A stretch of DNA of 64,000 bases from an uncultured Chloroflexia bacterium (GTDB taxonomy: Bacteria; Chloroflexota; Limnocylindria; Limnocylindrales; CSP1-4): positions 1,056,001 to 1,120,000 of the forward strand of contig CAVVJT010000007.1 in assembly GCA_963748625.1 (NCBI GenBank). Reading direction: 5' to 3'. Positions within the stretch are counted from its first letter, which is position 1. Each line of letters begins with the position of its first letter. The notes under the pieces were generated by a model. That model searched no databases, was not told where the DNA came from, and saw only the letters and a program-made list of their open reading frames with translations. Positions 568 through 53,209 of this stretch are shown one piece after another. The position numbers and the translations under genes are program-made.

Positions 568-603
568 TCCCGGTCGCCATCCGGGCGGTGGCATCCGGCG
601 GCC

Positions 604-1131: not shown

Positions 1132-1420
1132 GCGGCCAGTCTAGACCGGTGTCGGGATGAGGGCCGTGCGCGGCATGTCGCGCGCCGCGCGCACCGGGGC
1201 GAGGGTCCCGGGCGTACCTGCCATGGACGCGGCGCCCATGAATCGTCGCTTAGGGCCGCTACGGGTCGCGTCGGGCGCGCTTCAGCGACTGTTGGGACGA
1301 GTCTCGCAGACGCTCCGTCCATGATTGCGCCCCTGGACCGCGCACCGGGCCCCCGCACCGACGTTTCACAGGCGCTCCGTCCATGGGCAGCGGCGGCGAA
1401 GGGAGGTAGGCTGCGCAGCC

Positions 1421-2085: not shown

Positions 2086-2095
2086 CCTGTCGGGC

Positions 2096-3226: not shown

Positions 3227-3339
3227 GCCGCGCTGCGGCTGACGGGCCGGCTGCTTGGGCAACCGCCCCACAGGACGTGTTGCCGGCTGTTGGTGAGGAG
3301 TCGACACCCGCGCACCGCTTGGCTTGACTCGAGGGGTTG

Positions 3340-4307: not shown

Positions 4308-4315
4308 GCCCCCGC

Positions 4316-5221: not shown

Positions 5222-5273
5222 CGGGCCACCTCGGCTGCGCCGCTCATCGGTCCACCTCGGCGTCGCCGATCAC
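5218..5273 (-). other. two coupled 9-aa mini-ORFs (5244-5273 MIGDAEVDR; 5218-5247 MSGAAEVAR) formed by a 26-bp tandem repeat
   Basis: Each unit has a GAGGTG RBS and a GTGA/ATGA stop-start overlap. Confidence 0.6.
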
Positions 5274-8024: not shown

Positions 8025-8030
8025 TCGGCC

Positions 8031-35026: not shown

Positions 35027-35796
35027 CCGGCCTGCGCGTCCTGCTGGGCAAGGAGCTGCGCGAGGCATGGCGCACGCGGCGCCTGCCGGTGGTGGCCATC
35101 CTCTTCGTGATCGTGGGCATCCTCTCGCCGCTGACCGCGCGCTACCTCAATGAGATCCTGGAGGTGGCGCTCGCGGGCCAGCTGCCGATGGCCCTCCCCG
35201 ACCCCACGATCGCCACCGTGGTGGAGCAGCTCCAGAAGAACCTGGGCCAGCTTGGTGCCCTCGCTGCAATCGCACTCGCGATGGGATCGGTCGCAGGCGA
35301 GCTCGACAAGGGCACGGCGGCGCTCATCCTGGCGCAGCCCGTGACGCGGCCGGCGTTCCTGCTGGCCAAGCTGGTCGCCCTCGCGGTGGTGCTGCTGGTG
35401 TGCACCGTGCTCGGCGTGGCCGTGGCCTGGATCTATACCGCGATCCTGTTCGAGCCGGCCTCGATCGGGGGCTGGCTCGCCTTCGCCGTGCTCGCCTGGC
35501 TGGCGCTCCTGGCATGGGCATCCATCACGTTCCTCGCCTCGACGGTGACTGGATCCACCACCGCGGCGGCCGGCCTCGGCTTCGTGGCGCTCATCGTGCT
35601 GAGCCTGCTCGCGGTGCTGCCGGCGCTGGACCACGTCCTGCCAACCGGCCTCGCCCTCCCGGCATCGCTCCTCGCCGCGGGCAACGACGGAGCAGTCGAG
35701 GTCGGCAACCTGGCGACCGCCGTGGCTGGGACCGTGGTCCTGGTCGTGGCGTGTGCGGCGGGCGCCATCGCGTCGCTCCGCCGCCGGGAGCTGTAG
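35023..35796 (+). CDS. ABC-2 type permease
   Basis: KELREAWRT, VAGELDKGT..LILAQPVTR..FLLAK; 6 TM. Confidence 0.9.
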   Translation: MTGLRVLLGKELREAWRTRRLPVVAILFVIVGILSPLTARYLNEILEVALAGQLPMALPDPTIATVVEQLQKNLGQLGALAAIALAMGSVAGELDKGTAALILAQPVTRPAFLLAKLVALAVVLLVCTVLGVAVAWIYTAILFEPASIGGWLAFAVLAWLALLAWASITFLASTVTGSTTAAAGLGFVALIVLSLLAVLPALDHVLPTGLALPASLLAAGNDGAVEVGNLATAVAGTVVLVVACAAGAIASLRRREL

Positions 35797-36014
35797 GCGC
35801 ACGTGACCGGAGGACGCCGCGGACGCCGCGACGCCGGCTGTCGTGGATCGCGCGATCCACGCCCCAGTCCCGCCGCGACGGGTCCCCGGACCGTTGCGCT
35901 CCAGCACGCGACAGGTGTCGACGTCGCGCCACGGCAACGTGAACGCGCAGAACCGCCACAATGCCCGCACCACACCACCGTCCAAGGGGGAGGGCACCGG
36001 ATCCTCCGGAATCC

Positions 36015-39000
36015 ATGAGCGACACGGACCTGCCGGCCGCCGCACGTGCGGCCGGCTCGCAGCACCCGGAGCCCGAGGTGGCGCGGGACCGTCCCGACGC
36101 CTATATCGCGCGCGACCGGCGACGGGCGCTGCATGCCGGCCGGAACCTGCCTGACCGCGTCCAGGGCGCGGCCCTCTTCGCCGACATCAGCGGCTTCACC
36201 CCGCTCACGGAGGCGCTGGCCGGCGAGCTCGGGCCACAGCGGGGCGCGGAGGAGCTGGTCGCCAACATCGGGCGCGTGTTCCACGCCGTGATCGCCGAGC
36301 TCGATGCCTACGACGGCAACGTCATCTCTTTCGCCGGCGATGCGATCACCTGCTGGATCGACGGCGACGACGGCTCGCGCGCGTGCGCGGCGGCGATGGG
36401 CATGCAGGAGGCCATCGCCCGCACCGGCACCATCACCACGCCCGGCGGGACCATCGTGCAGCTCGCGATGAAGGTTGCGGTCGCGGTGGGCAGCGCCCGC
36501 AGGTTCGTCGTGGGCGACCCGGACATCCAGTTGATCGACGTCCTCGCCGGACGCCTGCTCGACACGCTGGCCGCCGCCGAGCACCACGCCGAGAAGGGCG
36601 AGATCGTGCTCGACCAGTCCGTCGTGGCGGCGATCGGGCCACGCCTGGTCCTGGGCGCATCGCGCGAGGATCCCGACACCGAGCGCACGCTACGGGTCCT
36701 GCTCGACCTGCGGGGCGATCTGCGGGGCGACGTGCCGGTCGTGCCGAGCGACGAGCCGGACCCGCTGCCGGACGACGTCGTCAGCCAGTGGCTGCTGCCG
36801 GCGGTGTACGAGCGGATGCGCACCGGGCGTGGCGAGTTCCTCGCCGAGCTGCGCCCGGCGATCCCGATCTTCCTCCGCTTCTCCGGTATCGACTACGACG
36901 GCGCCGAGGATGCGGTGGCCAAGCTCGACGACTTCGTTCGCGCGGCCCAGCGGGTGATGCACGGCTACGGGGGCAACGTCCTGCAGCTGACCCTCGGCGA
37001 CAAGGGCGCCTACCTGTATGGCGTGTTCGGCTCGCCGCGAGCCCACGAGGACGACGCCGCGCGCGCGGCTGCGGCGGCGCTCGAGCTGCGCGACCTCGAC
37101 CGCTCCACGGCCGTCCGGGACATCACGGTCGGCGTGGCGCACGGCCGGCTCCGGAGCGGCTCGTACGGGCATGCCATGCGTCGCACCTTCGTGTGCATGG
37201 GTGACGCGGTCAACCTCGCCGCACGCCTGATGACCAAGGCCCCGCCGGGATCGATCTACGTTGCCGACACCGTCCGTCAGGATGCCGGGGAGGCCTTCAT
37301 CTGGCAGCGCCTGGAGCCCCTCCGCCTCAAGGGCAAGGCAGAGGCCGTGCAGGCGTGGTCGCTGACCGGCTCGCTGGAGGGTGCCTCGCGCCGCAAGACC
37401 CGGTTCGAGTTGGACCTTGTCGGCCGGCTGGCGGAGCTCGAGGTCCTCGACCACGCCCACGCGGGCGCCCTGGCGGGTCGCGGCGCCGTCGTCGGGATCG
37501 CCGCTGAGGCCGGGATGGGCAAGTCCCGCCTGGTGGCGGAGTTCGTGCGCAACGCGCGCCGCGGCGGCCACATGGTCGTCTTCGGGGAATGCCAGGCGTA
37601 CGGCACCAGGACGCCGTACTTCGTGTGGCGGGAGATCTGGCGCCGCCTGTTCGGCCTCGAGGACGAACCGGTCGAGGCGCAGATCGCAACCCTCGAAGGG
37701 CAGCTGGCAGCCGTCAGCCCGGGCCTTGTCGCCCGTGCTCCGCTCCTTGCCGACGTCGTGGGGCTGCCCATCCCCGACACCGACCTGACGCGCAGCTTCG
37801 ACGCCAAGCTGCGGAAGGCCTCGCTCGAGGAGCTGCTCGGAGACGTCCTGCGCGCTCGCGCGGCCGAGGCTCCGTTCGTGGCAGTCCTCGAGGACTGCCA
37901 CTGGATCGACGAGCTGTCCCGCGACCTGCTGCACGGGCTCATCCGGGCGGCGAGCCAGCTCCCGGTCCTGTTCGTGCTCGCCTACCGTCCGGCAACGGAG
38001 CCCGGCGGTGGCCTAGGGGTCGCGGACGAGCCAGGTTTCACCGAGCTCGAGCTGGACCTGATGGATGCCGGCAGCATCGCAGTCCTCGCCCGCGCCAAGG
38101 CCAGCCAGCTCGCCGGCGCCGATGCGGTCGTCAGCGACGACCTGGTGACGCTCGTCGCCAGCCGTGCCGAAGGCAACCCGTTCTACGCCGAGGAACTGCT
38201 CTCCTACCTCGTCGCCCGGGGCGTGGACCTCGCCGATCCCGCCTCGGCAGCGACCGTCAGCGTCCCCGACAGCCTCCACAGCCTCGTGCTCTCGCGGATC
38301 GACGCCGCGGCCGAGAGCCCTCGCCGCACCATGAAGGTGGCCAGCGTTGTCGGCCGGGTCTTCGAGGCGCCGGTGCTGCCAGGCGCGTACGAGGAGCTGG
38401 GCTCGCTCGAGACAGTGGTGGGCGACCTCGAGGCCCTCCGCTCGCTCGACCTGGTCTCGCTCGATCGGGCCGAGGAGCAGGCCTGGATGTTCAAGCACGT
38501 GGTCACCCAGGAGGTGGCCTACGAGAGCCTGCCGTTCGCGCTCCGAGCGGACCTCCACGGGAGGGTGGGGGCCTACCTGGAGCGGCGGGAGGCGCAGGAC
38601 CTCGACCGCTGGGTGCCGCTCCTGGAGCACCACTACTGGCGGAGTGACCGGGAGGACAAGAAGCGCCTGTACCTCCGCCTCGCGGCCGAGGCGGCGCAGG
38701 CGTCCTACGCGAACCAGGCCGCGATCGCGTACTACGACCGGCTGATCCCCCTCCTCGAGGACGCCGAGCAGGTGGACGCGCAACTGAAGCTCGCGAAGGT
38801 CCTGGAGCTGACAGGCGCCTGGGTGCGCTCCGAGGAGATCGTGGGTGAGGCACGAGCCACGGCGGTCGGTCTGGCGGACACCGGCCGCGTTGCCTGGTGC
38901 GACACCGCCCTGGCCGAGGCCGCGCGCAAGCAGGGCCGGTACGACGAGGCCGGTGAACGCCTGGCGGCAGCGCGGGCAGGCTTCGAGGGGGTCGGTGCAG

Positions 39001-39776
39001 ACGACGGCCTCGGGCAGGTGCTGCACCTCGCCGGCACGCTCGCGGCGCAGCGCGGCGACTACGCGGCGGCGCGCGGGCGCTACCTCGAGTCGCTGCCGAT
39101 CCGCCACCGGCTCGGGGATCGCTCCGGTGAGGCCGCGCTCTACTCGAACCTGGGCGTGGTTGCCGAGTACTCCGGCGACTACGCGGCGGCCCGCACGTTC
39201 AACGAGCGCGCCCTCGCGGTGCGCACGGAACTGGGTGACCGCTGGGCGATCGGCGTGTCGCAGAACAACCTGGGGATGATTGCGCTCCATGAGCGGAGGT
39301 TTGCCGAGGCGCGCGCGTGCTTCGAGGAGTCCATGCGCCTCAACCGGGAGGTCGGCGACGCCTGGATGGTGGCGATCGGCCACAACAACCTGGGCAACGC
39401 GGCACGCGGTCTGGGCGACCTCGCGGCTGCCCGGGCGAGCTACGCGCAGAGCCTGCGCGCCTACCAGGCCTACGACGACCGGTGGGCCCTGGCCTTCCTC
39501 CTGGAGGACACTGCGATCCTCGGAGCCCGGCTCGGTGCTGCCGAGCGTGCGTTCGAGCTGCTGGGGGCCGCGGAGACGATGCGGACAGGGATCAACTCGC
39601 CTCGGGGCGCGGCCCTGGAAGAGGAGCTGAACGGCCATCTCGCGCAGGCAATGTCTGTGATTGGCACCGAGCGTGCCAATGCTGCGGTGCTGCGCGGCCG
39701 GAGGCTCGACACCGGGGCGGCGGTCAAGGTGGCATTGGAGCTGTGCCTCGACGCACCGGGTACCATCACGTTATAG
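36015..39776 (+). CDS. adenylate/guanylate cyclase with tandem cyclase domains, STAND/AAA ATPase and TPR repeats (sAC-like)
   Basis: LFADISGFT, FAGDAI, GDKG, GDAVNLAARLM; AEAGMGKSRL P-loop; LEDCHWID; GNPFY; NNLG TPRs. Confidence 0.92.
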   Translation: MSDTDLPAAARAAGSQHPEPEVARDRPDAYIARDRRRALHAGRNLPDRVQGAALFADISGFTPLTEALAGELGPQRGAEELVANIGRVFHAVIAELDAYDGNVISFAGDAITCWIDGDDGSRACAAAMGMQEAIARTGTITTPGGTIVQLAMKVAVAVGSARRFVVGDPDIQLIDVLAGRLLDTLAAAEHHAEKGEIVLDQSVVAAIGPRLVLGASREDPDTERTLRVLLDLRGDLRGDVPVVPSDEPDPLPDDVVSQWLLPAVYERMRTGRGEFLAELRPAIPIFLRFSGIDYDGAEDAVAKLDDFVRAAQRVMHGYGGNVLQLTLGDKGAYLYGVFGSPRAHEDDAARAAAAALELRDLDRSTAVRDITVGVAHGRLRSGSYGHAMRRTFVCMGDAVNLAARLMTKAPPGSIYVADTVRQDAGEAFIWQRLEPLRLKGKAEAVQAWSLTGSLEGASRRKTRFELDLVGRLAELEVLDHAHAGALAGRGAVVGIAAEAGMGKSRLVAEFVRNARRGGHMVVFGECQAYGTRTPYFVWREIWRRLFGLEDEPVEAQIATLEGQLAAVSPGLVARAPLLADVVGLPIPDTDLTRSFDAKLRKASLEELLGDVLRARAAEAPFVAVLEDCHWIDELSRDLLHGLIRAASQLPVLFVLAYRPATEPGGGLGVADEPGFTELELDLMDAGSIAVLARAKASQLAGADAVVSDDLVTLVASRAEGNPFYAEELLSYLVARGVDLADPASAATVSVPDSLHSLVLSRIDAAAESPRRTMKVASVVGRVFEAPVLPGAYEELGSLETVVGDLEALRSLDLVSLDRAEEQAWMFKHVVTQEVAYESLPFALRADLHGRVGAYLERREAQDLDRWVPLLEHHYWRSDREDKKRLYLRLAAEAAQASYANQAAIAYYDRLIPLLEDAEQVDAQLKLAKVLELTGAWVRSEEIVGEARATAVGLADTGRVAWCDTALAEAARKQGRYDEAGERLAAARAGFEGVGADDGLGQVLHLAGTLAAQRGDYAAARGRYLESLPIRHRLGDRSGEAALYSNLGVVAEYSGDYAAARTFNERALAVRTELGDRWAIGVSQNNLGMIALHERRFAEARACFEESMRLNREVGDAWMVAIGHNNLGNAARGLGDLAAARASYAQSLRAYQAYDDRWALAFLLEDTAILGARLGAAERAFELLGAAETMRTGINSPRGAALEEELNGHLAQAMSVIGTERANAAVLRGRRLDTGAAVKVALELCLDAPGTITL

Positions 39777-39907
39777 GCCATTCGGCATACTGAAAATGGC
39801 CCAAACGTCACATTACCCGTTGCCGTGACCTCCAAGAACGCGTAGTGTCACGGCCACTCGCGTCCCCGTGCCCTGGACTCGAGCACCTCCGTCACTCGAG
39901 GTTCACG

Positions 39908-42900
39908 ATGCGCTTCCGTCCCGTCCGCTTCGGTCCGACCCATTCCGGCAGCACGCCGAGCCGCGGCAGACCACGGATCGCGAAGCGGGCCGCGTCGCTG
40001 GGCGCTGCCGCGGTCATGGCGGCCACGAGCGTGCTGTCCATCGCGCCGGCGCCGGCGCGCGCGGCCGAGTACATGGTGGTCTCGACCGATGACAGCGGCG
40101 CGGGCACGCTGCGCCAGGCGATCCTCGACGCCAACGCGAGCCCCGGCTCCGATGTCATCTCGTTCGGATTCGAGGGACCCTACCCCCTCGTCATCCAGCC
40201 GGCGACGCCGCTCCCCGCCATCACCGGCAGCGTCACGATCGACGGGTCGATCGGTGGCAATCCCGCGATCCGGCTTGACGGCACCCTCATCGCGGACGTC
40301 GTCGGGAGCCTGAACGAGAACGGCCTGACCCTGAACGGGGGCGCCGGCGGCTCCACGATCACCGGCCTCCAGGTCGTGCGCTTCCCGGACAGCGGCATCA
40401 TGCTCAACGGCGTCTCCGGCGTGACGGTCGAAGGCAACTACCTCGGCACGGACGGCGCGGCCGACCTGGGCAACGGCGGCTACGGGCTCACCCTCTTGGG
40501 CGCCAACGGCAACACCATCCTGGGCAACGTGGCCTCCGGCAACGGCGCCCCGGCGGGCACCGGCGGCTGCTGCTCGGCCGGATTCGGCATCTGGCTGGGC
40601 GACGCGAATGCGGCCAACAACACCATCAAGGGCAACCGCATCGGGACCAACGCCGCCGGCACCGCGGCGATCGGCAACCAGAACTACGGCCTCGAGGTCC
40701 GCTCCCCGGACAACACGATCGGCGGGACCACCGCGGCGGACCGGAACCTCATCTCCGGCAACGGCCGGGGCGTGCACTTCGTCGGCACGACCCTCCAGGG
40801 CAATGTGTTCCAGGGGAACCGCGTGGGCACGAACGCGGCTGGCACGGCCGCGATCGCCAACGGCTCGCAGGCCATCCTTCTCAACGGCACCGACGACGCC
40901 ATCACGATCGGCGGGACCGCCGCTGGAGCCGGCAATCTCATCTCCGGCAACGGGAGCGCGATCATCCTGGGGTCGTCCTCGAACGCGCTGATCCAGGGCA
41001 ACCTGGTCGGCGTCGCCGCCGACGGCACCACGCCGCTCGGCAACGGGGGCGCGGGCGTCACCCTCAATCCCGGCACGAGCGCCACCGTCGGCGGGTCCGC
41101 GGCCGGCGCCGGCAACGTGATCGCCAACAACACCGGGGCGGGAGTCCTGGTCCTCGACCCATCGACCGGCAACAGCATCCTGGGCAACTCGATTCACGAC
41201 AACGGCGCCCTCGGCATCGACCTCGGCAACAGTGGCGTCACGGCGAACGACGCCGGCGACGTGGACACCGGGGCCAACGGGCTCCAGAACTTCCCGGTCA
41301 TCACCTCCACCAGCCCCACCAATGTCGCTGGGACCCTGGACTCCGCGCCGGGCGCCACCTACCGCATCGAGTTGTTCAGCAACACCACATGCGACGCGAG
41401 CGAGCATGGTGAGGGCGCCCAGCTGCTCAAGGTGGCCGTCGGACAGGCCCCAGGGCCGATCGGATTCGACGTCCCGGTGTTCAACGGCACCTTCCTGACT
41501 GCGACGGCCACCAACGAGACCACCGGTGAGACGTCGGAATTCGGCCCCTGCTTCGAGGTCACGGACGCGCTCCCTGCCCCAGGCTCGTGGTCGGCCTTCA
41601 AGAGCGCCACGACCGCCGGCACGTTCATGGCCGCCGGCAACGGTGCCGCCGGTCCGGCGCAGTTCACCTACGACCGCCTCGACCCACTTCCCAATGTGGC
41701 CGACGGCGGCGGGGAGTCCGGCGAGTGGACGTTCTTCACCACCGCGGGCTCGCCAGGGTCCATCACCGTTCCATGGCGCTACACCGGCTTCCACGCCTTC
41801 GCGGGGGTGACCGTCGGCCTGCGTGCCGTCGTGATCCGGGACGGCGACACCGAGGTGTCCAGCGAGGTGCTTGTCGATGCCGGGCCGCAGTCGTGCTGCA
41901 CGACGCCGTCCGCCGGCTTCGACTACACCGGCAGCGCCACGTTCGCGGTCCAGGCCGGCGACGTCTACGGCTTCGAGCTGACCGGCACCAACGGCGACAG
42001 CAACGACACCCTCAAGGGACAGCTCATCCTGGGCACCCAGGTCCCGACGAGCTGCTCCAACGCGCAAACGCTGTACGACACGACGTCCGACGGCCGGTAC
42101 GTCATCCACCCGATCGATGGCCAGCAGTTCTCCGTGTACTGCGACGGCATGAACGACACGCCGCGCGACTACCTGGACCTCAACGTGGAGCGGATCGGCC
42201 AGGGGTACAACTTCGCCTCCTACGACGCGGGCGATTCGCAGGGCACCGACGTCGTCACCAGCTTCACGAAGCTCCGCTTCGACCCGGCGACCCTCCGGGT
42301 GGACATCGGCGACCTCACGTTCGCCACCTCGACCGGCAGCCTGACCCATCCCGACCAGGGCGGCCCACAGACCGTGGCGTCCATGCCGTACGGCGTGGCC
42401 ATGGCCTGCAACAGCGGGGAGTGGGGCGACGGCGCCGCCAACGTGGACCTCTGGGGCACGCCGTTCGCGGTGGACGACGCCTGGGTCCCGCTGGGCACCG
42501 GCTCCGAGTTCTACGGCGGCGCGATCTTCTCGGGTGCGGACCAGACGGTGGACATCACCGCCAACGGCTTCTGCGGCTGGCGGACGCCGGACCCCGCGAC
42601 GTCGTTCTTCGTGTGGGAGACGCCGCCCGGCCAGGCCTACCTGCAGCTGCGCTACCTGAACGCACCCCCGGAGCCCACGCTCGCCACGCCAGTCCTGTTC
42701 GCGTCGGTCACCACGGCGCCGAACACCGCCGACGTGTACGGCCTCGTGGCCGGCGCGGCGAACCAGCACCTCGACCTCGAGATCCACGCCAGCGCGGCCT
42801 GCGTGGGCGGCGTGCTGCAGGATCCCGCACCCGTGATCGGCTCGGCCTCGGTCACGACCGACGCTGAAGGCTACTTCAAGGTGGCCGGCCAGTCCGGCCT

Positions 42901-43507
42901 CCCGTCCGGCAGGTTCGTGGCGGTGCATGTCACGAGCCCTGCCACGACGGATGTCTCCAGCTGCGTCCGCACCAGCGCCGACAACGACTACTGGCCCAAG
43001 GCCCTGGCCCTGGGCAACTCCGCATCGGTGAGCACGCAGGACGTCATCGACGTCCGCGGCAAGGCTCGCTGGTACCGGATCCCGGTCGTGCCCGACCAGC
43101 GCGTCACGGTGCGCCTCAAGAACCTGCCGGCGGACTACGACCTCGCGGTGTTCAAGGACATCGCGAAGGAGTTCGCCGCCCAGCTGGCGCCCGAGGACAC
43201 CACCGACCTGACCAGGCTCTCGGCAGAGTTCGCGCCCTCGGTGTTCAGCCCGAGCGTGTTCAGCCCGAGCGTGTTCAGCCCGAGCGTGTTCAGCCCCGAC
43301 GCCTACGCGCCGTCGGTGTTCAGCCCCTCGGTGTTCAGCCCGAGCGTGTTCAGCCCCTCGGTGTTCAGCCCGAGCGTGTTCAGCCCCTCGGTGTTCAGCC
43401 CGAGCGTGTTCAGCCCCTCGGTGTTCAGCCCGAGCGTGTTCAGCCCCTCGGTGTTCAGCCCCGAGCGTGTTCAGCCCCAGCGTGTTCAGCCCGAGCGTGT
43501 TCAGTGA
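39908..43507 (+). CDS. N-terminal part of giant secreted protein (beta-helix repeats, GON domain, PSVFS repeats)
   Basis: Signal peptide ending APARA; DSGAGTLRQAI..AN; GNRIGTNAAGTAAIGN repeats; frame breaks at ~43460. Confidence 0.85.
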   Translation: MRFRPVRFGPTHSGSTPSRGRPRIAKRAASLGAAAVMAATSVLSIAPAPARAAEYMVVSTDDSGAGTLRQAILDANASPGSDVISFGFEGPYPLVIQPATPLPAITGSVTIDGSIGGNPAIRLDGTLIADVVGSLNENGLTLNGGAGGSTITGLQVVRFPDSGIMLNGVSGVTVEGNYLGTDGAADLGNGGYGLTLLGANGNTILGNVASGNGAPAGTGGCCSAGFGIWLGDANAANNTIKGNRIGTNAAGTAAIGNQNYGLEVRSPDNTIGGTTAADRNLISGNGRGVHFVGTTLQGNVFQGNRVGTNAAGTAAIANGSQAILLNGTDDAITIGGTAAGAGNLISGNGSAIILGSSSNALIQGNLVGVAADGTTPLGNGGAGVTLNPGTSATVGGSAAGAGNVIANNTGAGVLVLDPSTGNSILGNSIHDNGALGIDLGNSGVTANDAGDVDTGANGLQNFPVITSTSPTNVAGTLDSAPGATYRIELFSNTTCDASEHGEGAQLLKVAVGQAPGPIGFDVPVFNGTFLTATATNETTGETSEFGPCFEVTDALPAPGSWSAFKSATTAGTFMAAGNGAAGPAQFTYDRLDPLPNVADGGGESGEWTFFTTAGSPGSITVPWRYTGFHAFAGVTVGLRAVVIRDGDTEVSSEVLVDAGPQSCCTTPSAGFDYTGSATFAVQAGDVYGFELTGTNGDSNDTLKGQLILGTQVPTSCSNAQTLYDTTSDGRYVIHPIDGQQFSVYCDGMNDTPRDYLDLNVERIGQGYNFASYDAGDSQGTDVVTSFTKLRFDPATLRVDIGDLTFATSTGSLTHPDQGGPQTVASMPYGVAMACNSGEWGDGAANVDLWGTPFAVDDAWVPLGTGSEFYGGAIFSGADQTVDITANGFCGWRTPDPATSFFVWETPPGQAYLQLRYLNAPPEPTLATPVLFASVTTAPNTADVYGLVAGAANQHLDLEIHASAACVGGVLQDPAPVIGSASVTTDAEGYFKVAGQSGLPSGRFVAVHVTSPATTDVSSCVRTSADNDYWPKALALGNSASVSTQDVIDVRGKARWYRIPVVPDQRVTVRLKNLPADYDLAVFKDIAKEFAAQLAPEDTTDLTRLSAEFAPSVFSPSVFSPSVFSPSVFSPDAYAPSVFSPSVFSPSVFSPSVFSPSVFSPSVFSPSVFSPSVFSPSVFSPSVFSPERVQPQRVQPERVQ
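43235..43505 (+). repeat. 15-bp repeat x17 (4+13, split by DAYA) encoding PSVFS
   Basis: GTGTTCAG every 15 nt, with one 30-nt gap and one 16-nt step at ~43460. Confidence 0.95.
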
Positions 43508-46500
43508 GGAGGACGTCGCGCGCGCCTTCTCGTCCGCCCAGACACGGAGCCTGATCGGCGTGTCGGCCCAGGCCGGGCCGGGCGACGAGTCGGTCGTCGT
43601 GAACTCGTGGAACAACACGGGCGACGTCTACATCCGGGTCTCCGGCCGCTCCGGCGCCTTCGACCTGGACGGCCTGTTCACGGTCGAGATCGAGAAGTCG
43701 GCCAGCACGTGCGACGGTGTCACCGACACCACGCTCACGCCGCGCGCCGACGCGCCTTCGGCTGGTGTCCAGTCGGTCATCCTCACCGACTCCTCGATCC
43801 TGCAGCTCGGCGACGCGGGCAACCCCGCATCGCTCCGCGCGTCGCTCGACGACTTCATCGCGAGCAGGGAGGTCGCCGGCATCCCCGTGGATGCTCTCGT
43901 GGATGTCGCGGGCGACGTTCGCGTCGGCGAGCTCAAGGCCCAGGTCGCAGCGCATCCGGCCTGCCCGTTCGCCGTCAACCTCCTCGCGGAGGAGATCAAG
44001 GGGATCGTGGACTCGTACCGGGCGAACAACCCCGGCCTGCGCTACGTGACCATCCTCGGCGGCGACACCGTCATCCCGTTCTTCCGCTACCCCGACCAGA
44101 GCCTCCTGGGCCAGGAGTCCGGCTACTTCCCGCCGGTGAAGAGCGACTCGATCTCCGAGGCGAGCCTCCGCAGGGACTACGTCCTCAGCCAGGACGCCTA
44201 CGGCTCCGGCGTGTCGGTCTCGCTCCGGATCAACAGCTTCCCCGTCCCGGGCCTGGCCGTCGGCCGGCTGGTGGAGACCCCGTCCGAGATCGCGGCGCTG
44301 CTGGACGCCTACGTGACGGCCAACGGCACGATCACCCCGGAGACGTCGCTCGTCACGGGTTACGACTTCCTGGAGGACGCCGCCAAGGGCGTCCGCGACG
44401 AGCTCGCCGCCGGCACGGGCACGGCACCCGACGACACCCTCATCACGCCCAACGGCGTCTCACCCAGTGATCCGCAGTCGTGGACCGCGGACCAGTTGCG
44501 GGCCAAGCTGCTGACGGGCGGCCGGCACGACCTCGTGTACCTGGCCGGGCACTTCTCGGCCAACAGCGCGCTGGCGGCCGACTTCAGCACCAGCGTCATC
44601 ACCACCGAGCTTGCAGCGTCGAGCGCGAACCTGGTCAACACGATCGTGTTCAGCGCCGGCTGCCACTCCGGGTACAACCTGCTCGACGCCGAGGCGCTTC
44701 CGGGCGCGTCGCTCCCGCTCGACTGGGCGCAGGCGTTCTCGCAGAAGCGCGCGATCCTGCTCGCCGGGACCGGCTACCAGTACGGGGACACCGACTTCCT
44801 CGAGTACAGCGAGCGGCTCTACCGTGACTTCGCCCGTGAGCTGCGGACCGGCACCATCGGCACCGCGGTCTCCATCGGCGAGGCGCTCCGCAATGCCAAG
44901 CTCACATATCTGTCCACGACCCCCGACATCCGGGGAATCCACGAGAAGGCGCTCCTCGAGGCGACCCTGTTCGGTCTGCCGATGTGGGGCGTGGACATGG
45001 ACGGCCAGCGGACCGGGACCCCGGGAGCCGGCACGGGGATCGCGCCGGCTCCGGTCACGAGCGGTCCCGCCTCGACGCTGGGCCTCGCCACGGCGCCGCT
45101 CCTGATCACCCCGAACCTGGGCCCCCGCAAGACCCTCGACCTCGTGAACGCCCCGTACACCAACCCGGCCGACACCACGACCGCGTCGTGGTACGAGGGC
45201 CCGGGTGGCGCCGTGACCACCAACCCCGCGGAACCGACGCTCCCGCTGCTCGTCCGCAACGTCACCTCGACGACCAGCGGCTATGTCCTGCGGGGGATCG
45301 GCTTCCGGGGCGGCAGCTACACGGACACCTCCGCGGTCACGCCGCTCACGGGTGCCCCCACGACCGAGCTGCGCGGGGTGCACGCACCCTTCGTCTCGCC
45401 CGTCTTCTTCCCGATGCGACCGTGGACGCCGAACTACTTCGGGGCGCTCGGCGGATCGGGTGGCACCAACCTGCTCACGACGCCCGTCCAGTACCGGGCC
45501 GACCCTGCCAACCCGGGCAAGGGCATCGAGCGCAAGTACACGGGCCTGGAGCTGAAGCTGTTCTACAGCAACAACCTCACCACGGCTGCCCTCTCCGAGG
45601 CACCGACCATCGTCAGCGTCGAGGCCGTCCCCGACGGCAGCGATCTCATCTTCTCCGCGGAGGTCGTGGGTGATCCAAAGGCCGCGGTCCACACCGTCTG
45701 GGTGACCTGGACCACCGGGACCGGGACGTGGGCACCGCTCGACCTCGCCCAGTGCGTGGCCCCGCTGCCGGCCGCCTGCGGAACGACGGAAGACTCACGG
45801 ATCTGGCGCGGCCGGCTGCTGAACAGCCCCGCGAACATCCAGTACGTGATCCAGGCCGCGAACGGCCTCGGCATGGTGTCGCTCAGCGACAACCTCGGGG
45901 CGTACTTCGGCCAGGCGGCTGCGGCCCCGTCGGCGGCGACCCTCGAGCTCGTCGATCCGCCCACCTCGGGCACCTTCGGCGAGACGAGGCCTGTCACCGT
46001 GCGGCTGACCTCGGGCACGACCGATGTCGGCGGCCGGACCGTCTTCGTCACCATCGGCGGCACAACCGCCTCGGGCACGACGGACGCGAACGGGCGCACA
46101 ACGGTCAACGTGCCGCTGAGCTCGCTGCCGGGTGCGACCCAGGTGAGCGCCTCGTTCGGCGGTGACGACACGTATGGCGCGGCCTCGGCGCCGGGCCAGC
46201 CGTTCAGCATCGGGAAGGCGGCGAGCAGCCTGGCAGTCACCGCCGGACAGAACCCGGTGGATTACGCCGCCGGCACCACCGTCAGCGCCACCCTCTCGAG
46301 CGGCGGCACGCCGCTGCTCCAGCGGACGGTCGCCTTCCTCGTCACCGCGCCGGGAGGGTCGACGACCCTCGCGTTGCGGACGACCGACTTCACCGGCAAG
46401 GCAACCCTCAACCTGCCTTCGGGGACCGTCGGGTCGTACGGGGTCGAAGCCCGCTTCGGGTCCGTGGTCAACGTCCCCGGCGGCGGCACGGTCGACCTGA

Positions 46501-47435
46501 CCGACGCGACCTACGGAGCGGCGGCGCAGGAGGTGACCGTGACGATGACGGCCGCGACCGTGACGACCGTCACGCTGGTGCGGTCGCCGCAGCCGTACGT
46601 GTACGACAGTTCCCCGTTCGGGGCGACCGCTGGCGTCACCGGCCCGGGACTCGACACGACCCTCAGCCCAACCTATACGGGTACGACCTTCGCCGGCAAC
46701 GTCTACGGCCCGACGGCCACCGCTCCGACCGATGCCGGCAGCTACCGGGCGACCGCAACCTACGCCGCCAGCGGCGGCTACGTCGCCAGCGAGGCCTCCG
46801 TCGACTACGTCGTCGGCAGGGCTGCCTCGACGGTGACGCTGACCCTCAACGGCACCTCGCCGTTCCCGTTCGACGGCCAGCCGCACGGCGCCACAGCCGT
46901 CGCGTCGGGGGTCGGCGGTCTCAACGTGCCCCTGACCGTGACCTACTCGGGCACGGGCTCGACGGTCTATCCATCGACGACCACGGCTCCGACCGCCGCG
47001 GGCTCCTACATCGCACAGGCCACCTACCTGGGCGGATCCAACCACACCGGCAACGCGGCCAGCGCCGCATTCACCATCGTGCCGTGGCCGTTCACCGGGT
47101 TCTTCGCCCCGGTGGACAACCTGCCGACGCTGAACACGGCGACGGCGGGACAGACGATCCCCGTCAAGTTCAGCCTGGGGGGCAACCGGGGCCTGGCGAT
47201 CTTCCAGCCCGGCTACCCCAGGGCCGTGACCGTCGCGTGCCAGGCGAACGCCACGCTCGACGTCATCGAGGAAGTGTCGACGGCCACGACGAGCGGGCTC
47301 CAGTACGACGCCACGACGAACCGCTACCAGTACAACTGGAAGACGGCCAAGACCATGGCGGGCAAGTGCTGGCAGCTCCAGCTCGGCCTGAAGGACGGCA
47401 GCACCGCCGCCCTGGCGAACTTCAAGTTCAAGTAG
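43467..47435 (+). CDS. C-terminal part of giant secreted protein (C25/gingipain-like clan CD peptidase, Ig/MBG-like domains, PxKF domain)
   Basis: YVTILGGD..IPF, AVGRL, VYLAGH, VFSAGCHSG, LFGLP; GFFAPVDN...TIPVKFSL...YQYNWKT. Confidence 0.82.
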   Translation: MFSPSVFSPSVFSEEDVARAFSSAQTRSLIGVSAQAGPGDESVVVNSWNNTGDVYIRVSGRSGAFDLDGLFTVEIEKSASTCDGVTDTTLTPRADAPSAGVQSVILTDSSILQLGDAGNPASLRASLDDFIASREVAGIPVDALVDVAGDVRVGELKAQVAAHPACPFAVNLLAEEIKGIVDSYRANNPGLRYVTILGGDTVIPFFRYPDQSLLGQESGYFPPVKSDSISEASLRRDYVLSQDAYGSGVSVSLRINSFPVPGLAVGRLVETPSEIAALLDAYVTANGTITPETSLVTGYDFLEDAAKGVRDELAAGTGTAPDDTLITPNGVSPSDPQSWTADQLRAKLLTGGRHDLVYLAGHFSANSALAADFSTSVITTELAASSANLVNTIVFSAGCHSGYNLLDAEALPGASLPLDWAQAFSQKRAILLAGTGYQYGDTDFLEYSERLYRDFARELRTGTIGTAVSIGEALRNAKLTYLSTTPDIRGIHEKALLEATLFGLPMWGVDMDGQRTGTPGAGTGIAPAPVTSGPASTLGLATAPLLITPNLGPRKTLDLVNAPYTNPADTTTASWYEGPGGAVTTNPAEPTLPLLVRNVTSTTSGYVLRGIGFRGGSYTDTSAVTPLTGAPTTELRGVHAPFVSPVFFPMRPWTPNYFGALGGSGGTNLLTTPVQYRADPANPGKGIERKYTGLELKLFYSNNLTTAALSEAPTIVSVEAVPDGSDLIFSAEVVGDPKAAVHTVWVTWTTGTGTWAPLDLAQCVAPLPAACGTTEDSRIWRGRLLNSPANIQYVIQAANGLGMVSLSDNLGAYFGQAAAAPSAATLELVDPPTSGTFGETRPVTVRLTSGTTDVGGRTVFVTIGGTTASGTTDANGRTTVNVPLSSLPGATQVSASFGGDDTYGAASAPGQPFSIGKAASSLAVTAGQNPVDYAAGTTVSATLSSGGTPLLQRTVAFLVTAPGGSTTLALRTTDFTGKATLNLPSGTVGSYGVEARFGSVVNVPGGGTVDLTDATYGAAAQEVTVTMTAATVTTVTLVRSPQPYVYDSSPFGATAGVTGPGLDTTLSPTYTGTTFAGNVYGPTATAPTDAGSYRATATYAASGGYVASEASVDYVVGRAASTVTLTLNGTSPFPFDGQPHGATAVASGVGGLNVPLTVTYSGTGSTVYPSTTTAPTAAGSYIAQATYLGGSNHTGNAASAAFTIVPWPFTGFFAPVDNLPTLNTATAGQTIPVKFSLGGNRGLAIFQPGYPRAVTVACQANATLDVIEEVSTATTSGLQYDATTNRYQYNWKTAKTMAGKCWQLQLGLKDGSTAALANFKFK

Positions 47436-47595: not shown

Positions 47596-47808
47596 TCAGG
47601 CGCGGGCCTGGCGCTCGAGGCGGCGCTGGAAGCGCTCGACCTGGCCGGCGGTGTCGATGATGTTCTGCTTGCCCGTGTAGAACGGATGGCAGTTGCTGCA
47701 GACGTCGATCCGCAGCTCATCGCGGGTTGATCCAACCTCGAACTCCGTGCCGCAGGAACCGCAGTGGACCTTGGCCTGGCTGTAACGAGGGTGTGTTTTC
47801 GGCTTCAC
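47596..47808 (-). CDS. rpmE: 50S ribosomal protein L31 (Zn-ribbon type)
   Basis: MK...HP.Y....V.CGSCG...IDVCSNCHPFYTGKQ.IIDTAGQVERF. Confidence 0.96.
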   Translation of the reverse strand: MKPKTHPRYSQAKVHCGSCGTEFEVGSTRDELRIDVCSNCHPFYTGKQNIIDTAGQVERFQRRLERQARA

Positions 47809-47874
47809 AGGTGCTCCTTCGACGCCGTCCGAACGGGTCCGTGCCCGCCGGTGGCCGCCGCTGTCGGGTGCGGT

Positions 47875-48156
47875 CTAGGCCTCGGCCGCGACCGGCTCGG
47901 TCACAACCGGGATGATCCGGACCCGCTTCTTGGACTTGGTCTCGTGCTCGAAGCGCACCCTACCGGTGATCTTCGCGTAGATCGTGTAGTCCTTGCCAAG
48001 GCCGACGTTCTCGCCGGCCTTGAAGGTCATGCCGCGCTGCCGGACGATGATCGACCCTGCCGGCACGAGCTGGCCGTCGCCGCACTTGGTGCCAAGTCGC
48101 TGGCCAACGGAGTCGCGGCCGTTCTTCGAGCTCGAGCCCGCTTTCTTGTGCGCCAT
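47875..48156 (-). CDS. rpmA: 50S ribosomal protein L27
   Basis: [21 protein letters not shown]. Confidence 0.97.
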
Positions 48157-48159
48157 CGC

Positions 48160-48855
48160 TTACTCGTCCTTCTTCGCGCGAGTCGTGCGCTTCTTCGGCG
48201 CCGCCTCGGTTGTCTCGGTCTCGGCGGCCGACTCATCCGCGGGGGAAGCGTCGGCCTCGGGGGCGTCGGCCTCGGCGGCCTCGGTGGCCTCGGTGGCCTC
48301 GGCGACAGCTTCGGCCTCAGGGGCCTCGGCGGGAGCGGCCTTGGCGCGGGACTTCTTCGGGGCCGGGGCCTCTTCGGTGGCTTCCTCGGCGGGCGCCTCG
48401 GCCTCCGCCGGAGCGGCGACCTTGAGCGACGCGGCGAGAGCAGCGTCCTGCGCAGCCTGGCGGGCGGCGGCCTCTTCGATCGCCTTGCGGTCGTCAGCCT
48501 GCTTGGGTGCCTTCTCCGCCTTGTCCTCGGCCGCGCTCTTGCCACCGAACGTGATGTCGGCGATGCGCAGGACCGTCAGCTCCTGGCGGTGGCCCTTCTT
48601 GACCCGGCGACGGGCCTTGGGGCGGTACTTGAACGCGATGACCTTGTCACCACGAATGGCGCCGACGACGTCGGCCTGGACAGTTGCGCCGTCCACGATG
48701 GGCTTGCCGACGGCGGCAGTGTCCCCGTCGACAACGAGGAGCACCCGGTCCAGCGTGATGGACTGGCCGGCCTCCACGTCAAGCAGCTCAACCTCGAGCT
48801 GGGTGCCGACCTCGACGCGGTACTGCTTCCCGCCGGTCTCGATGACTGCGTACAT
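48160..48855 (-). CDS. rplU: 50S ribosomal protein L21 with long Ala/Glu-rich C-terminal extension
   Basis: MYAVIETGGKQYRV...KKGHRQ.LT.LRI; GAGGA RBS. Confidence 0.95.
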   Translation of the reverse strand: MYAVIETGGKQYRVEVGTQLEVELLDVEAGQSITLDRVLLVVDGDTAAVGKPIVDGATVQADVVGAIRGDKVIAFKYRPKARRRVKKGHRQELTVLRIADITFGGKSAAEDKAEKAPKQADDRKAIEEAAARQAAQDAALAASLKVAAPAEAEAPAEEATEEAPAPKKSRAKAAPAEAPEAEAVAEATEATEAAEADAPEADASPADESAAETETTEAAPKKRTTRAKKDE

Positions 48856-49021
48856 GGGTCCTCGGAAGAGCGATAGCGGCCGCGGGGCGACCGCGACTTT
48901 GACATGGTGAAGCGCCGACGGCCATCGCGGGCGCGAAAGGGGAGTGTAGGACGGATGCGCGAGGACCGTCAACGCTCCCGCCGGCGCGTGGTGGCCGTGC
49001 TGTTGAGCGCAGCCCGGGCGC

Positions 49022-50719: not shown

Positions 50720-52042
50720 TCAGGCTGCGGGTGCCGCCTCGGGGTCTGCGGCCGCTGCATCAGCGGCAGCGGCCCGGGGCACCGCCCACGCCAGGAGATA
50801 CGGCGCGGCCACCGTCGTGAGGACAACCGCAACGAGCATCTCGGCGAACAGCGTCGCGTCCACCACGCCGGTTGCCAGGGCCAGGTTCGCGACCACGATG
50901 CCCACCTCACCGCGGGGCACCATGCCGAAGCCGACGGTGACCGATCCCCAGCGCCCGAGGCTCGCGGCGCCGACGATGCCGCCGACCGCCTTGGTCACCA
51001 CGCCGACCAGCGCCAGGGCAATCGCGAACAGCGCCACCTCCGGGTTGAGCATGACCGAGAGGTCCAGCTGGGCCCCCGTCACCGCGAAGAAGAACGGTGT
51101 GAAGATGGAGGCGAGCGGCTTGAACTCCTGCTCCAGCTCGTGCGCTGCCTCCGTCTCGGCGACGATCAGGCCGGCCACGAAGGCACCGATGATCGCCGCA
51201 AGGCCGATGAGGGCCGCGAGCAGCGCAATGGCCAGCATGATCATGAACGCGGGCACAAGCGGCGTGTCGGCGAACAGCGGCCAGGTGAACACGCTGCGCG
51301 GCAGGCCCCGTGCCCTGCGGGCGATCACAAAGCCGAGCAGCACCAGCCCGACGCCCGCAACGCCCACGACCAGCGTCATCACCGACACGCTGCCCTCGGC
51401 GGCGCCCGTTGCGAGCCCGATCAGGACGAGGGCCAGGATGTCGTCCACCAGGGCCGCCCCGATCACCACCCTGGCGAACTTCCGGTCGAGCACGCCCATG
51501 TCACGCAGGACGCGGCTCGTGATGCCGATGCTGGTGGCGGCGAGCGCGAGACCCATGAACACGGCGGCCATCGAGTCGTAGCCCAGGGCCACGGTGAGGC
51601 CGAAACCGCCCGCGAGCGGCAGCAGCGCCCCGATCACCGCGGTCAGCAGCGCCGCCTTGCCCACCTTGAGCAGGTCGTCGGTCTTGACTTCCAGCCCAAC
51701 CGTGAACAGCAGCACGACCACGCCCAGCTCGGCCATGACCTGTGCCGTCTCCCCCGGGATGACCAGGCCCAGCGCATACGGTCCCACGAGGAAGCCACCC
51801 AGCAGCTCACCCACCACGCCGGGCTGCCCGAGTCGGCGGGCGACCTCCTCGCCCAGCTTCGCGCCGAGCAGGAGGATGAACAGGCCGGCCATCGCCTCGG
51901 TGATGCCCTCGGCTCCGCCGGCTCCGAAGCCGGACAGCAGCTCCGGAACAGGCACCCCGGCTGATGCGAGCACGTTCGGTGCGACCACGAATGCGGCGAA
52001 CGCTCCAAGCAGGAGCGCCAGCCGGCGGGGGCCCGCTACCAC
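50720..52042 (-). CDS. cation:proton antiporter (CPA2 family)
   Basis: GQPGVVGELLGG, ATSIGIT, AALVDD, GMVPRGEV. Confidence 0.9.
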   Translation of the reverse strand: MVAGPRRLALLLGAFAAFVVAPNVLASAGVPVPELLSGFGAGGAEGITEAMAGLFILLLGAKLGEEVARRLGQPGVVGELLGGFLVGPYALGLVIPGETAQVMAELGVVVLLFTVGLEVKTDDLLKVGKAALLTAVIGALLPLAGGFGLTVALGYDSMAAVFMGLALAATSIGITSRVLRDMGVLDRKFARVVIGAALVDDILALVLIGLATGAAEGSVSVMTLVVGVAGVGLVLLGFVIARRARGLPRSVFTWPLFADTPLVPAFMIMLAIALLAALIGLAAIIGAFVAGLIVAETEAAHELEQEFKPLASIFTPFFFAVTGAQLDLSVMLNPEVALFAIALALVGVVTKAVGGIVGAASLGRWGSVTVGFGMVPRGEVGIVVANLALATGVVDATLFAEMLVAVVLTTVAAPYLLAWAVPRAAAADAAAADPEAAPAA

Positions 52043-53196
52043 TCCGCCTTTCCCTGCCGGATGTTGACGCTCTGCATGACCCCGAGGCCGATCGCGATGG
52101 TCACCAGGGACGCGCCACCGTTGCTGATGAACGGGAGCGGGATACCGGTGACCGGCATGATCCCGATCACCATCCCGACATTCACGAACACCTGGAACAG
52201 AAGGGCGGACGCGAGACCCGCCCCGAACAGCGTCCCGAACGGGTCACGCGAGCGCCACGCGCTCGCGAGGATGCGCCAGATCAAGGCCACGAACAGGACG
52301 AACACCAGGAGCGCGCCGATGAACCCGAGCTCCTGGGCAAGGACGGCGAACACGAAGTCGGACTCGGCGACCGGCAGGAACTCCCCGCGGACATGCTGGC
52401 CGTTGGTGAGGCCCACGCCGAACGGGCCACCGGAGCCCACGGTGAGCTGGCTCTGGTACACCTGCCAGCAGGAGCCCTGGACATCGGTGCACGGGTTCAG
52501 GAACGACGTCAGGCGCTCCTTCTGGTAGTCACGGAGGACGTAGGTCCAGGCGATGGGGACGGCCGCCACGCCGGCCGCCACCATCAGCAGCAGCCAGCGC
52601 AGGCTGGCGCCGGACATGAAGAGCATGCCCGCCAGGATCGAGGCGAGCACCAGGGATGTGCCGAGGTCGGGCTGCAGCATCACGAGCACCAACGGCGGGC
52701 CCATCAGCAGGCACGCGCCCAGGATCGCCACGATGGAGTCCAGCCGGCCCTCCCGGTTCCCGAGGTACGTCGCGAGAACGATGATCATCAGGATCTTCGC
52801 GAGCTCGGAGAACTGGAACGTGAGCGGCCCCAGCCTGACCCAGCGGGCGGAACCTCCCACCCCGTCGCCGATGGCCAGCGTGAGCACGAGCAACCCGAGG
52901 TTCACGAAGTAGATCGGCCATGCGAGCGTCTTGAGCCAGCGGTAGTCGAAGGCCGTCATGGCGATGAAGACCACGATCGCGAGGGCCGCCCACATGAGGG
53001 CGCGTGAGAAGACGGTGCCCTCGGACAGGACCGACTGGCCCGCCTCGACGCTGTTCGTGTACGCCATCACCAGGCCGATGGCGCCCAGCAGGGCGGCGTA
53101 CGTCGTGAGCTGGAGGTCGTAGGCGCGCCACACCGCACCGACGGACTTCGCAGTCGCGCCGGCGAAGCGCCCGGGCTCGGCCCGCATCACGCGCAT
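52036..53196 (-). CDS. rodA: rod shape-determining protein RodA (SEDS)
   Basis: GSARW, FQFSELAK, QPDLGT, SDFVFAVLAQELG, PVTGIPLPFISNGG. Confidence 0.92.
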   Translation of the reverse strand: MRVMRAEPGRFAGATAKSVGAVWRAYDLQLTTYAALLGAIGLVMAYTNSVEAGQSVLSEGTVFSRALMWAALAIVVFIAMTAFDYRWLKTLAWPIYFVNLGLLVLTLAIGDGVGGSARWVRLGPLTFQFSELAKILMIIVLATYLGNREGRLDSIVAILGACLLMGPPLVLVMLQPDLGTSLVLASILAGMLFMSGASLRWLLLMVAAGVAAVPIAWTYVLRDYQKERLTSFLNPCTDVQGSCWQVYQSQLTVGSGGPFGVGLTNGQHVRGEFLPVAESDFVFAVLAQELGFIGALLVFVLFVALIWRILASAWRSRDPFGTLFGAGLASALLFQVFVNVGMVIGIMPVTGIPLPFISNGGASLVTIAIGLGVMQSVNIRQGKAEW

Positions 53197-53209
53197 TCGA
53201 CGATGACCC

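Follow-up and report, generated by a model that had tools for sequence, protein, structure and literature searches.

A predicted C25-family peptidase behind a pentapeptide array in a jelly-roll loop, encoded across a frame break in a Limnocylindrales genome

What do two long open reading frames (ORFs) encode that overlap in differing frames at positions 39908-47435 of a 64,000-nucleotide stretch, hereafter the window, from an uncultured Limnocylindrales bacterium (assembly GCA_963748625.1, contig CAVVJT010000007.1, positions 1,056,001 to 1,120,000 of the forward strand)? The upstream frame, ORF A, spans 39845..43507 (+; 1220 aa), with its first usable ATG at 39908 (residue 22 of the open frame), and the downstream frame, ORF B, spans 43467..47435 (+; 1322 aa). 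An initial annotation had read the two as one giant secreted protein in which an array of pentapeptides stands before a cysteine peptidase. Our best explanation is a single gene for a C25 exoprotein, in which the array forms a latency or processing loop and production is coupled to a neighbouring cyclase. As a whole we consider this explanation fairly probable; the identity of the protein we hold with high confidence, and the mechanism proposed for the array is tentative.

The identity was approached through the region at 43767..45008 (+), predicted to form a gingipain-type catalytic domain (family C25, clan CD) by Pfam PF01364, an AlphaFold model (model residues 1-414) and fold matches. Scanned alone, the domain matched PF01364 (Peptidase_C25) with E 9.2e-7 and 28.9 bits against a cut-off of 23, over profile positions 48-348 of 374. 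The Pfam scan of the whole ORF B missed it, PF01364 stood above its cut-off in only three of the nine aligned members, and a genome-scale search with this profile missed even the window's own gene and is too insensitive for this branch; precomputed annotation lists Pfam C25 for 25 of 120 homologues. Searches of solved structures by sequence, performed with ORF B and two further queries (A1 and A2), retrieved no solved chain for the domain, gingipains included. The AlphaFold2 model of window positions 43767-45146, built on a 28-row alignment, reached a predicted local distance difference test (pLDDT) score of 85.2 and a predicted template modelling (pTM) score of 0.86, and Foldseek with this model placed RgpB and Kgp at the top (E 1.7e-11 to 3.7e-9). 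A second fold search, independent of Foldseek, gave RgpB a Z score of 31.8 (root-mean-square deviation (rmsd) 2.9 A over 315 residues) and Kgp one of 28.9. The next folds were separase (Z 17.5), DdvA (15.1) and PorU (13.8), then CHAT proteases, metacaspases, legumain and caspases.

Of the predicted catalytic residues, the His precedes the Cys. The His codon, CAC at 44550..44552 (+) in the motif LAGH, follows model strand 256-259, and the Cys codon, TGC at 44661..44663 (+) in SAGCHSG, follows model strand 293-296. Both residues (His362 and Cys399 in ORF B numbering) occupy invariant columns, in 9 of 9 and in 28 of 28 aligned sequences. Among 79 related loci from named public genomes, GCH was present in all 79; a regular expression located the His motif in 60 of them, and inspection of the sequence by eye located it in the remaining 19. 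From the profile above its cut-off, the modelled gingipain-type fold and the conserved predicted dyad, we assign the middle domain to family C25 of clan CD. The clan CD call of the initial annotation is thereby upheld, the two codons lie exactly where it had placed them, each after a modelled strand, and the structure predicted for the peptidase segment has the gingipain-type fold. It is very improbable, in our judgement, that the domain is a dead enzyme retained as a binding module. Pseudo-enzymes are common among clan CD folds, a general point, and nothing specific speaks for such a loss here; all 79 loci, from several phyla, retain the His, the Cys and the motifs around them, and both residues are invariant in both alignments.

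The second question is whether the two frames are one gene. The N-terminal gene part occupies 39908..43507 (+), from the ATG at 39908 to an out-of-frame TGA at 43505-43507, and the C-terminal part 43467..47435 (+), in a frame already open for about 85 codons upstream of 43467. The frame break sits within the tandem array, which alternates 15-nt units GTGTTCAGCCCGAGC and GTGTTCAGCCCCTCG, each encoding VFSPS. Reading the array unit by unit, we found that the unit beginning at 43451 has 16 nt, GTGTTCAGCCCCGAGC, which creates a run of four C at 43459..43462 (+) with one extra base; past this run the frame of ORF A reads RVQP... and terminates at 43505-43507. The initial annotation had stated that removal of one C joins the ORFs into 2,508 residues, and the codon count agrees (2,508 codons from 39908 to 47432, minus one base). 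The nearest protein in the database, P0004, was called as a single gene product of 2,259 aa and is colinear with both ORFs across the junction: ORF A aligns up to its residue 982 (59% identity) and ORF B from residue 974 (70%). It carries the same PSVFS array with the same single PDAYA unit.

Relatives point the same way. Within the genus, 16 of 24 other genomes searched match ORF B; in the sister family, matches were found in 0 of 16 genomes searched. Eight of the matching loci in the genus were read, comprising seven close homologues and one distant relative (G004, locus L021). Six of the seven close homologues are single open frames of 1,734-2,381 aa, and the seventh (G009, L017, about 7700-8420) has one frameshift within an APPSY array, where ...APPSYAP passes into PPSYAPPSY.... 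Over the 79 loci, the motif preceding the array could be placed in 58, and it shares the frame of the peptidase in 55 of these; the two are out of frame in L030, L033 and L100. The motif was unplaceable in the other 21, seven of which lie at a contig end. One gene is thus the normal state, since 55 of 58 placeable loci and 6 of 7 close homologues keep a single frame. As judged from the sequences, 39908-47435 is one gene, split by a single extra base in a C run of the repeat array. Programmed frameshifting was considered as well and is ruled out by the 55 of 58 placeable relatives that are in one frame. The strand opposite ORF A holds a 1,256-codon open frame (window 39848-43618, -) and several similar ones; these are shadow frames expected at 71% G+C and not genes.

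The extra base itself is rather probably an assembly error. Apart from this base, both halves stay open throughout and retain every conserved residue, and the insert of 292 nt equals 97 codons plus one nucleotide; 97 is, together with 93, a mode of the family. Frame breaks are also scattered elsewhere: the orthologues of the neighbouring cyclase gene in L018 (G013) and L020 (G016) each match the window protein in two pieces, resembling assembly frame breaks, and the tails of P0017, P0036 and P0065 are broken too. Such breaks, outside arrays and in neighbour genes, fit assembly indels. A real frameshift, which would make the gene a recent pseudogene or an off-state variant in this strain, is a lesser but appreciable possibility. 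It predicts a secreted head of 1,200 aa without peptidase, and a C-terminal half that lacks a signal peptide and is not made. The extra base is, after all, present in the assembled sequence, and homopolymer slips are a known type of real mutation. Furthermore, G009, L030, L033 and L100 likewise break frame between the jelly-roll half and the peptidase; together with the window these are five independent breaks at the same stretch, so that the array could be a true mutational hot spot. This recurrence weighs against an assembly error. Among the four sequencing runs examined (short Logan contigs), none bridges 43459-43462 from the same strain; the 20 runs found with similar DNA each hold at most 0.29 of the sampled words, and the one row with one base fewer (X3, depth 2) is a related array aligned in another register. 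A real frameshift is in turn hard to reconcile with two halves that are otherwise open with their conserved residues in place, with an insert of exactly a modal family length once one base is discounted, and with breaks that also occur outside arrays. Moreover, slippage of 15-nt units preserves the frame, so the array is not built for phase variation. An assembly error remains the explanation that we prefer for the extra base.

The array raises the question of what such a repeat does directly before a peptidase. The insert at 43235..43526 (+; 97 codons and one extra base) consists of four PSVFS units, one PDAYA, thirteen PSVFS and the closing EEDVARA. The initial annotation had described it as (PSVFS)17, and the 17 PSVFS units are indeed there, with PDAYA in addition as the fifth and single acidic unit (43295..43309, +; Asp codon 43298-43300). 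The tandem repeats finder (TRF) reported 43241-43504 with period 15 and 17.5 copies, and 43235-43504 with period 30, 9.0 copies and 87% matches. The same Ser is encoded by AGC in one DNA unit type and by TCG in the other; these codons are not joined by a single substitution, which points to selection on the peptide. A pentapeptide-repeat quadrilateral beta-helix was tried as a structure for the array and ruled out, as there is no Pentapeptide match in Pfam and the array scores pLDDT <50; many lineages also place Asp or Glu at what would be the inward position.

The sequences on either side of the array, an N-terminal part with leading helices at 42980..43234 (+; DNDYWPKAL ... LSAEFA) and a C-terminal part at 43527..43703 (+; FSSAQTRSLIG ... 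FTVEIEKSA), were delimited by alignment with a modelled homologue and resemble the two halves of a PPC domain. The two halves in the window match neither Pfam PPC nor any other Pfam family; the first half of G004 (L021) aligns with PPC (PF04151) over positions 1-38 of 70 at 24.2 bits, below the cut-off of 25.9. The jelly roll was modelled on P0027, the homologue with the shortest array (four units), from a 17-row alignment, with pLDDT 80.9 and pTM 0.74. The strands on either side of the array score about 90, helices span residues 62-85 and 107-121, and the array residues 86-105 fall at pLDDT <50 and are predicted to be disordered. The model matches the collagen-binding domain (CBD) of ColH (Z 13.7, rmsd 2.1 A, 108 of 117 residues, model range 1-171, thus both halves), that of ColG (Z 13.3) and the PPC domain of a Bacillus collagenase (Z 10.9), with a Foldseek E of 4.2e-5. 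Because these matches extend across both halves, the array is, on this model, an insertion in a loop of a PPC/collagen-binding-type jelly roll and not a linear linker.

Whether an array always precedes the peptidase, a point raised with the initial annotation, could be answered for all homologues long enough to judge. Among the 116 database homologues that contain the Cys motif, 90 have a period-5 array whose end lies 365-410 residues ahead of the Cys; of the remaining 26, 25 are truncated gene calls that start at or after the array point, and one, P0027, has a short array below the threshold, so that the array is present in 91 of the 91 database homologues long enough to reveal it. A profile search supplied its 150 best representatives, 119 of them with 200 or more upstream residues; 90 of the 119 pass an automatic periodicity test, and the other 29, read by eye, all carry a tract with units of 5, 7, 8 or 10 residues. 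At the array position G004 (L021) has a non-repetitive insert. The modal unit over 46 arrays is Pro (40), Ser or Asp (24 and 16), Val or Ala (16 each), Phe (43) and Ser (44). In composition the arrays are made of Ser, Pro, Phe, Ala, Asp and Val, almost without Arg, Leu or Cys, and with an aromatic fraction of about 0.19, one aromatic at every fifth residue; in the L081 lineage the unit is PGSPS, without an aromatic residue. Within one genus the unit varies between PSVFS, GSGFS, APPAY, APPSY and GNPSYI. The length of the insert varies little, also across phyla: between the flanks LSAEFA and FSSAQ its median is 93 and its interquartile range 93-97 (47 of 85 sequences, those with both flanks recognised), and in the 128 of 248 proteins whose flanks were recognised, the commonest lengths are 97 (31 proteins) and 93 (30 proteins). 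The acidic unit is also recurrent. Out of 97 arrays whose units are not themselves acidic, 79 keep an acidic interruption. It falls on the fifth unit, offset 21, in 57 of these and is single in 66, usually as FSPDAY[AS]; in another 30 arrays every unit carries Asp or Glu.

We tentatively favour the reading of the array as a latency or processing loop, because it stands at the place of the gingipain prodomain and because clan CD enzymes are commonly activated by cleavage of a loop or a prodomain. The protein would be exported through its putative Sec signal peptide as a predicted extracellular cysteine endopeptidase, which variable head and tail modules may aim at a substrate or a surface. The array would occupy the place of the gingipain inhibitory prodomain, and cutting of the loop would activate the enzyme. 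The strongest candidate cut site is the retained Pro-Asp-Ala-Tyr unit with the Asp codon at 43298-43300, and cleavage within the loop would yield two polypeptides, one with the head and one with the peptidase, which the jelly roll would keep joined.

Several observations weigh against this proposal. No acidic interruption occurs in 18 of the 97 non-acidic arrays, and in one lineage the units are the hexapeptide GNPSYI, with no internal Asp, so a cut site at Asp-Ala cannot be universal. The proteins counted for the acidic unit are kin, and the counts therefore overstate independence. In addition, a loop of 93-97 residues far exceeds the length needed to reach the neighbouring active site, and the RgpB prodomain was not among the 50 best fold matches of the jelly-roll model. 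It is also possible, and we would give it no more than tentative credence, that the array is never cut and acts as a disordered loop of aromatic stickers, an elastic or adhesive element or a self-associating patch at the cell surface, comparable to elastomeric or FG-type pentapeptide repeats. The predicted disorder of the array, its composition of Ser, Pro, Phe, Ala, Asp and Val with one aromatic per five residues, and a unit sequence that differs by lineage while pattern and length are kept would all suit such a role. An uncut loop leaves unexplained, however, the fixed length, the single retained Pro-Asp-Ala-Tyr unit and the constant place directly before the protease, and with both of its ends in one domain the loop cannot serve as a linear spacer.

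The protein has further parts on either side of this core. At the N terminus, the putative Sec signal peptide (39908..40063, +) was judged by eye and comprises 52 aa, from the initial M to APAPARA, with AEY following. A right-handed beta-helix comes next, with its best Pfam stretch at 40322..40885 (+; Beta_helix E 3.2e-12, NosD 4.9e-11, aa 160-347 of the frame) and repeats that extend to both sides, and then GON, which matches best at 42044..42220 (+; profile positions 1-56 of 199, with a second stretch after it; Pfam E 2e-11, or 2.3e-12 on a sub-piece). Behind the peptidase lies a conserved region of about 270 aa (45144..45956, +), matched by tblastn in 78 of the 79 loci; it has no Pfam family and no usable match in the ESM Atlas. 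Two Ig-like domains follow at 45960..46466 (+; Big_3_5 E 1.1e-10 and 42.4 bits over a cut-off of 35.5; Big_1 27.1 bits, below its cut-off), then Thr/Gly-rich repeats at 46464..47093 (+) that are weakly MBG-like (MBG_3 E 0.0048, 17.4 bits against a cut-off of 25). The PxKF ('rightmost') domain at 47094..47432 (+), with IPVKF at 47157-47171, matches NCBIfam NF038114 (E 4e-36, 123.8 bits over a cut-off of 35) and occupies aa 1210-1322 of the 1322 in ORF B, the extreme C terminus. The beta-helix, GON and PxKF named in the initial annotation are thus all present; of its Ig/MBG repeats, the Ig-like part is above its cut-off and the MBG part below.

Heads and tails differ among relatives. Precomputed Pfam lists show beta-helix, GON, Kelch, DUF642, VWA and propellers as heads, and the closest homologue, P0004, ends in a PD40 propeller and not in PxKF. 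Comparison of the sequences indicates that heads, here beta-helix and GON, and tails, here PxKF, are swapped between relatives. The PxKF tail is found in 17 of the 79 loci and at two places only in this genome. The other copy (G000:C10:1399409-1399744, -) ends a 1,136-codon frame; outside the tail, this frame shows no C25 match to ORF B. These counts rule out PxKF as a general sorting tag, and PxKF, which the initial annotation had named in place of a type IX secretion system (T9SS) tail, is not the counterpart of one. The distant relative L021 (G004; 2-5755; 32% identity) has PLKNI-type repeats at its N terminus, and its last ~300 codons resemble an out-of-frame Arg-rich tail.

The modules bear on a further possibility, that the C25 domain is no degradative enzyme but a transpeptidase that, like a sortase and in the manner of PorU, attaches itself or other proteins to a polymer of the cell envelope. 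PorU has a C25-type fold and is among the fold matches (Z 13.8), and the protein bears many binding-type modules together with a dedicated C-terminal domain. The modelled fold is nevertheless far nearer to the hydrolytic gingipains (Z 31.8 and 28.9), PxKF is too rare to be a sorting signal, and conserved partner genes are lacking. We consider a transpeptidase unlikely and retain the endopeptidase as the preferred reading.

Among the neighbouring genes tested, only one is conserved. It lies upstream at 35961..39776 (+) and encodes a cytoplasmic cyclase/AAA/TPR protein of 1,271 aa, with matches to Guanylate_cyc (45.5 bits, cut-off 21.9), AAA_16 (73.1, cut-off 32.6) and TPR_12 (85.7, cut-off 30.1), in that order; a second, N-terminal cyclase-homology domain was seen by eye in the translation, as were the catalytic residues. 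A strong orthologue stands beside the peptidase gene in 53 of the 79 loci (co-oriented with it in 24 loci that have it upstream and in 22 that have it downstream, on the opposite strand in 5 and unplaced in 2), and the 7 loci of the same genus that have a close homologue all have it, at 60-65% identity. Paralogues of the neighbour in the genome are weak: the two long matches do not exceed 30% identity, and a short one reaches 37% at most. Eight window neighbours were tested against the 79 loci; seven match in none and an ABC ATPase matches in 8. The neighbouring cyclase sensor would probably use a cyclic nucleotide to make production of the protein depend on a signal. Such a coupling is weakened by the 26 loci without a strong cyclase neighbour, 11 of which are flanked by 3 kb or more of sequence on each side.

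The pairing of the two genes admits another interpretation of the array. It may be a poly-pentapeptide precursor that its own C25 domain or a partner dices into lineage-specific pentapeptides, and these may be re-imported, read by the TPR of the neighbouring STAND cyclase and answered by a cyclic nucleotide; both the dicing and the reading we regard as highly unlikely. Quick change of the unit sequence among close relatives and the pairing of the genes are what such peptide signalling would lead one to expect. It would be pherotype-like and follow the logic of Phr/Rap systems, but with a giant exoprotein and a cyclase. Array unit and TPR showed some covariation, pairs with the same unit having a TPR-to-cyclase/AAA identity ratio of 0.96 against 0.90 overall; this is confounded by the kinship of the pairs and by the greater similarity of their cyclase part, and within the 0.7-0.8 identity bin the trend runs the other way. 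Prediction of a complex between the TPR region of the neighbour and nine array units gave a score of 0.01, which is no answer and counts neither way.

Other genes of the window are of local interest. Upstream, window 33065-35796 (+) holds the ABC ATPase, in which PLDc_N precedes ABC_tran, followed by an ABC-2 membrane protein; the ATPase is matched in 8 of the 79 loci and the membrane protein in none. Directly downstream of the peptidase gene, a 370-codon ORF (window 47764-48876, +) has no Pfam family and no match in the 79 related loci. Adjoining genes of the RodA/FtsW family and for a PBP2-type transpeptidase (window 52036-55111, -) form an ordinary cell-elongation pair.

The family to which the protein belongs is large. 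A profile of the region retrieved 3,565 cluster representatives (50% identity clusters) at E <=0.001 and 2,071 at <=1e-30, and a word-based search found at least 1,149 members among 8,000 candidates scored. The core common to the family is the jelly roll with an array loop of the pattern Pro-x-x-aromatic-Ser, the C25 peptidase with its His/Cys pair, the region of ~270 aa and Ig-like domains. By record label, members occur in Chloroflexota (Limnocylindria, Anaerolineae, Ardenticatenaceae, Caldilineaceae, Thermomicrobiaceae), Actinomycetota (Gaiellaceae, Acidimicrobiia, Nocardioides), Verrucomicrobiota and metagenome-assembled genomes (MAGs) of Proteobacteria, from soil and water; taxon labels of MAGs may be wrong. 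The nearest homologues are labelled Chloroflexota or Limnocylindrales. The gene is intact in two cultured isolates, Kineosporia sp. R_H_3 (L096), where the neighbour gene is present too, and Motilibacter deserti E257 (L067). The initial annotation had taken the architecture to be uncharacterised. In the literature searched we found no publication on the family, the array or the PxKF domain, which agrees with it; some members do, however, already bear the NCBI names 'C25 family cysteine peptidase' or 'PxKF domain-containing protein', so the family is not unrecognised in databases.

To our knowledge, almost all gingipain-type peptidases described so far come from Bacteroidota and have been studied there as virulence factors. 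The present family, with at least 3,565 clusters, is a distinct branch, by record label outside that phylum, on which abundant soil bacteria spend 5-13 kb of coding sequence per copy. Two oddities are constant in it, an aromatic array of gauged length through a jelly-roll loop and an adjoining cyclase/STAND/TPR gene. Should the latency-loop reading hold, with cleavage at a defined site, this would be a new way to hold a clan CD protease inactive; should peptides be released from it, the pair would represent a new kind of signalling module.

How, then, does the protein compare with known systems? With the gingipains RgpB and Kgp of Porphyromonas gingivalis (MEROPS C25, clan CD; PDB 4IEF, 1CVR, 4RBM) it shares the two-subdomain catalytic fold, a His that precedes the Cys with each after a beta strand, a Pfam C25 match above cut-off and, within a large secreted protein, beta-sandwich domains that follow the catalytic one. 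Unlike them, it is only 9-16% identical in sequence, has no T9SS C-terminal domain in the Pfam and NCBIfam scans of ORF B (which gave only Big_3_5, Big_1 and PxKF), and shows no gingipain-type prodomain that the fold search recognised, the enzyme being preceded instead by a jelly roll with a 97-residue repeat insert. Its relatives differ further by variable heads and tails, by hosts labelled as other than Bacteroidota and by the common cyclase/AAA/TPR neighbour. Because of the absent T9SS tail, the lack of a recognised gingipain prodomain and the identity of 9-16%, the protein is a member of family C25 and not a gingipain proper. PorU, the C25-type sortase of type IX secretion (PDB 6ZA2), shares the clan CD C25-like fold, but the match is much weaker than that of the gingipains, and the window protein is without a T9SS context. 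The jelly roll is the same as in the collagen-binding and PPC domains of clostridial and Bacillus collagenases (PDB 3JQW, 1NQD, 5IKU, 5SV5); in the family, unlike in these, one loop is opened by two helices and the array of 93-97 residues, and the domain is N-terminal and not C-terminal to the peptidase. The neighbour gene resembles what we take to be the Actinomycetota class III adenylyl cyclase-STAND ATPase-TPR proteins, such as the mycobacterial Rv0386 group. It departs from this group in its two tandem cyclase-homology domains (seen by eye), in having no DNA-binding domain reported by Pfam and in being paired with a gene for a secreted peptidase. In the autoproteolytic SEA and GAIN domains, the cut chains stay joined by a folded domain. 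By analogy alone, with no relation of sequence or fold claimed, the two chains of the family protein would likewise remain joined if its loop is cut.

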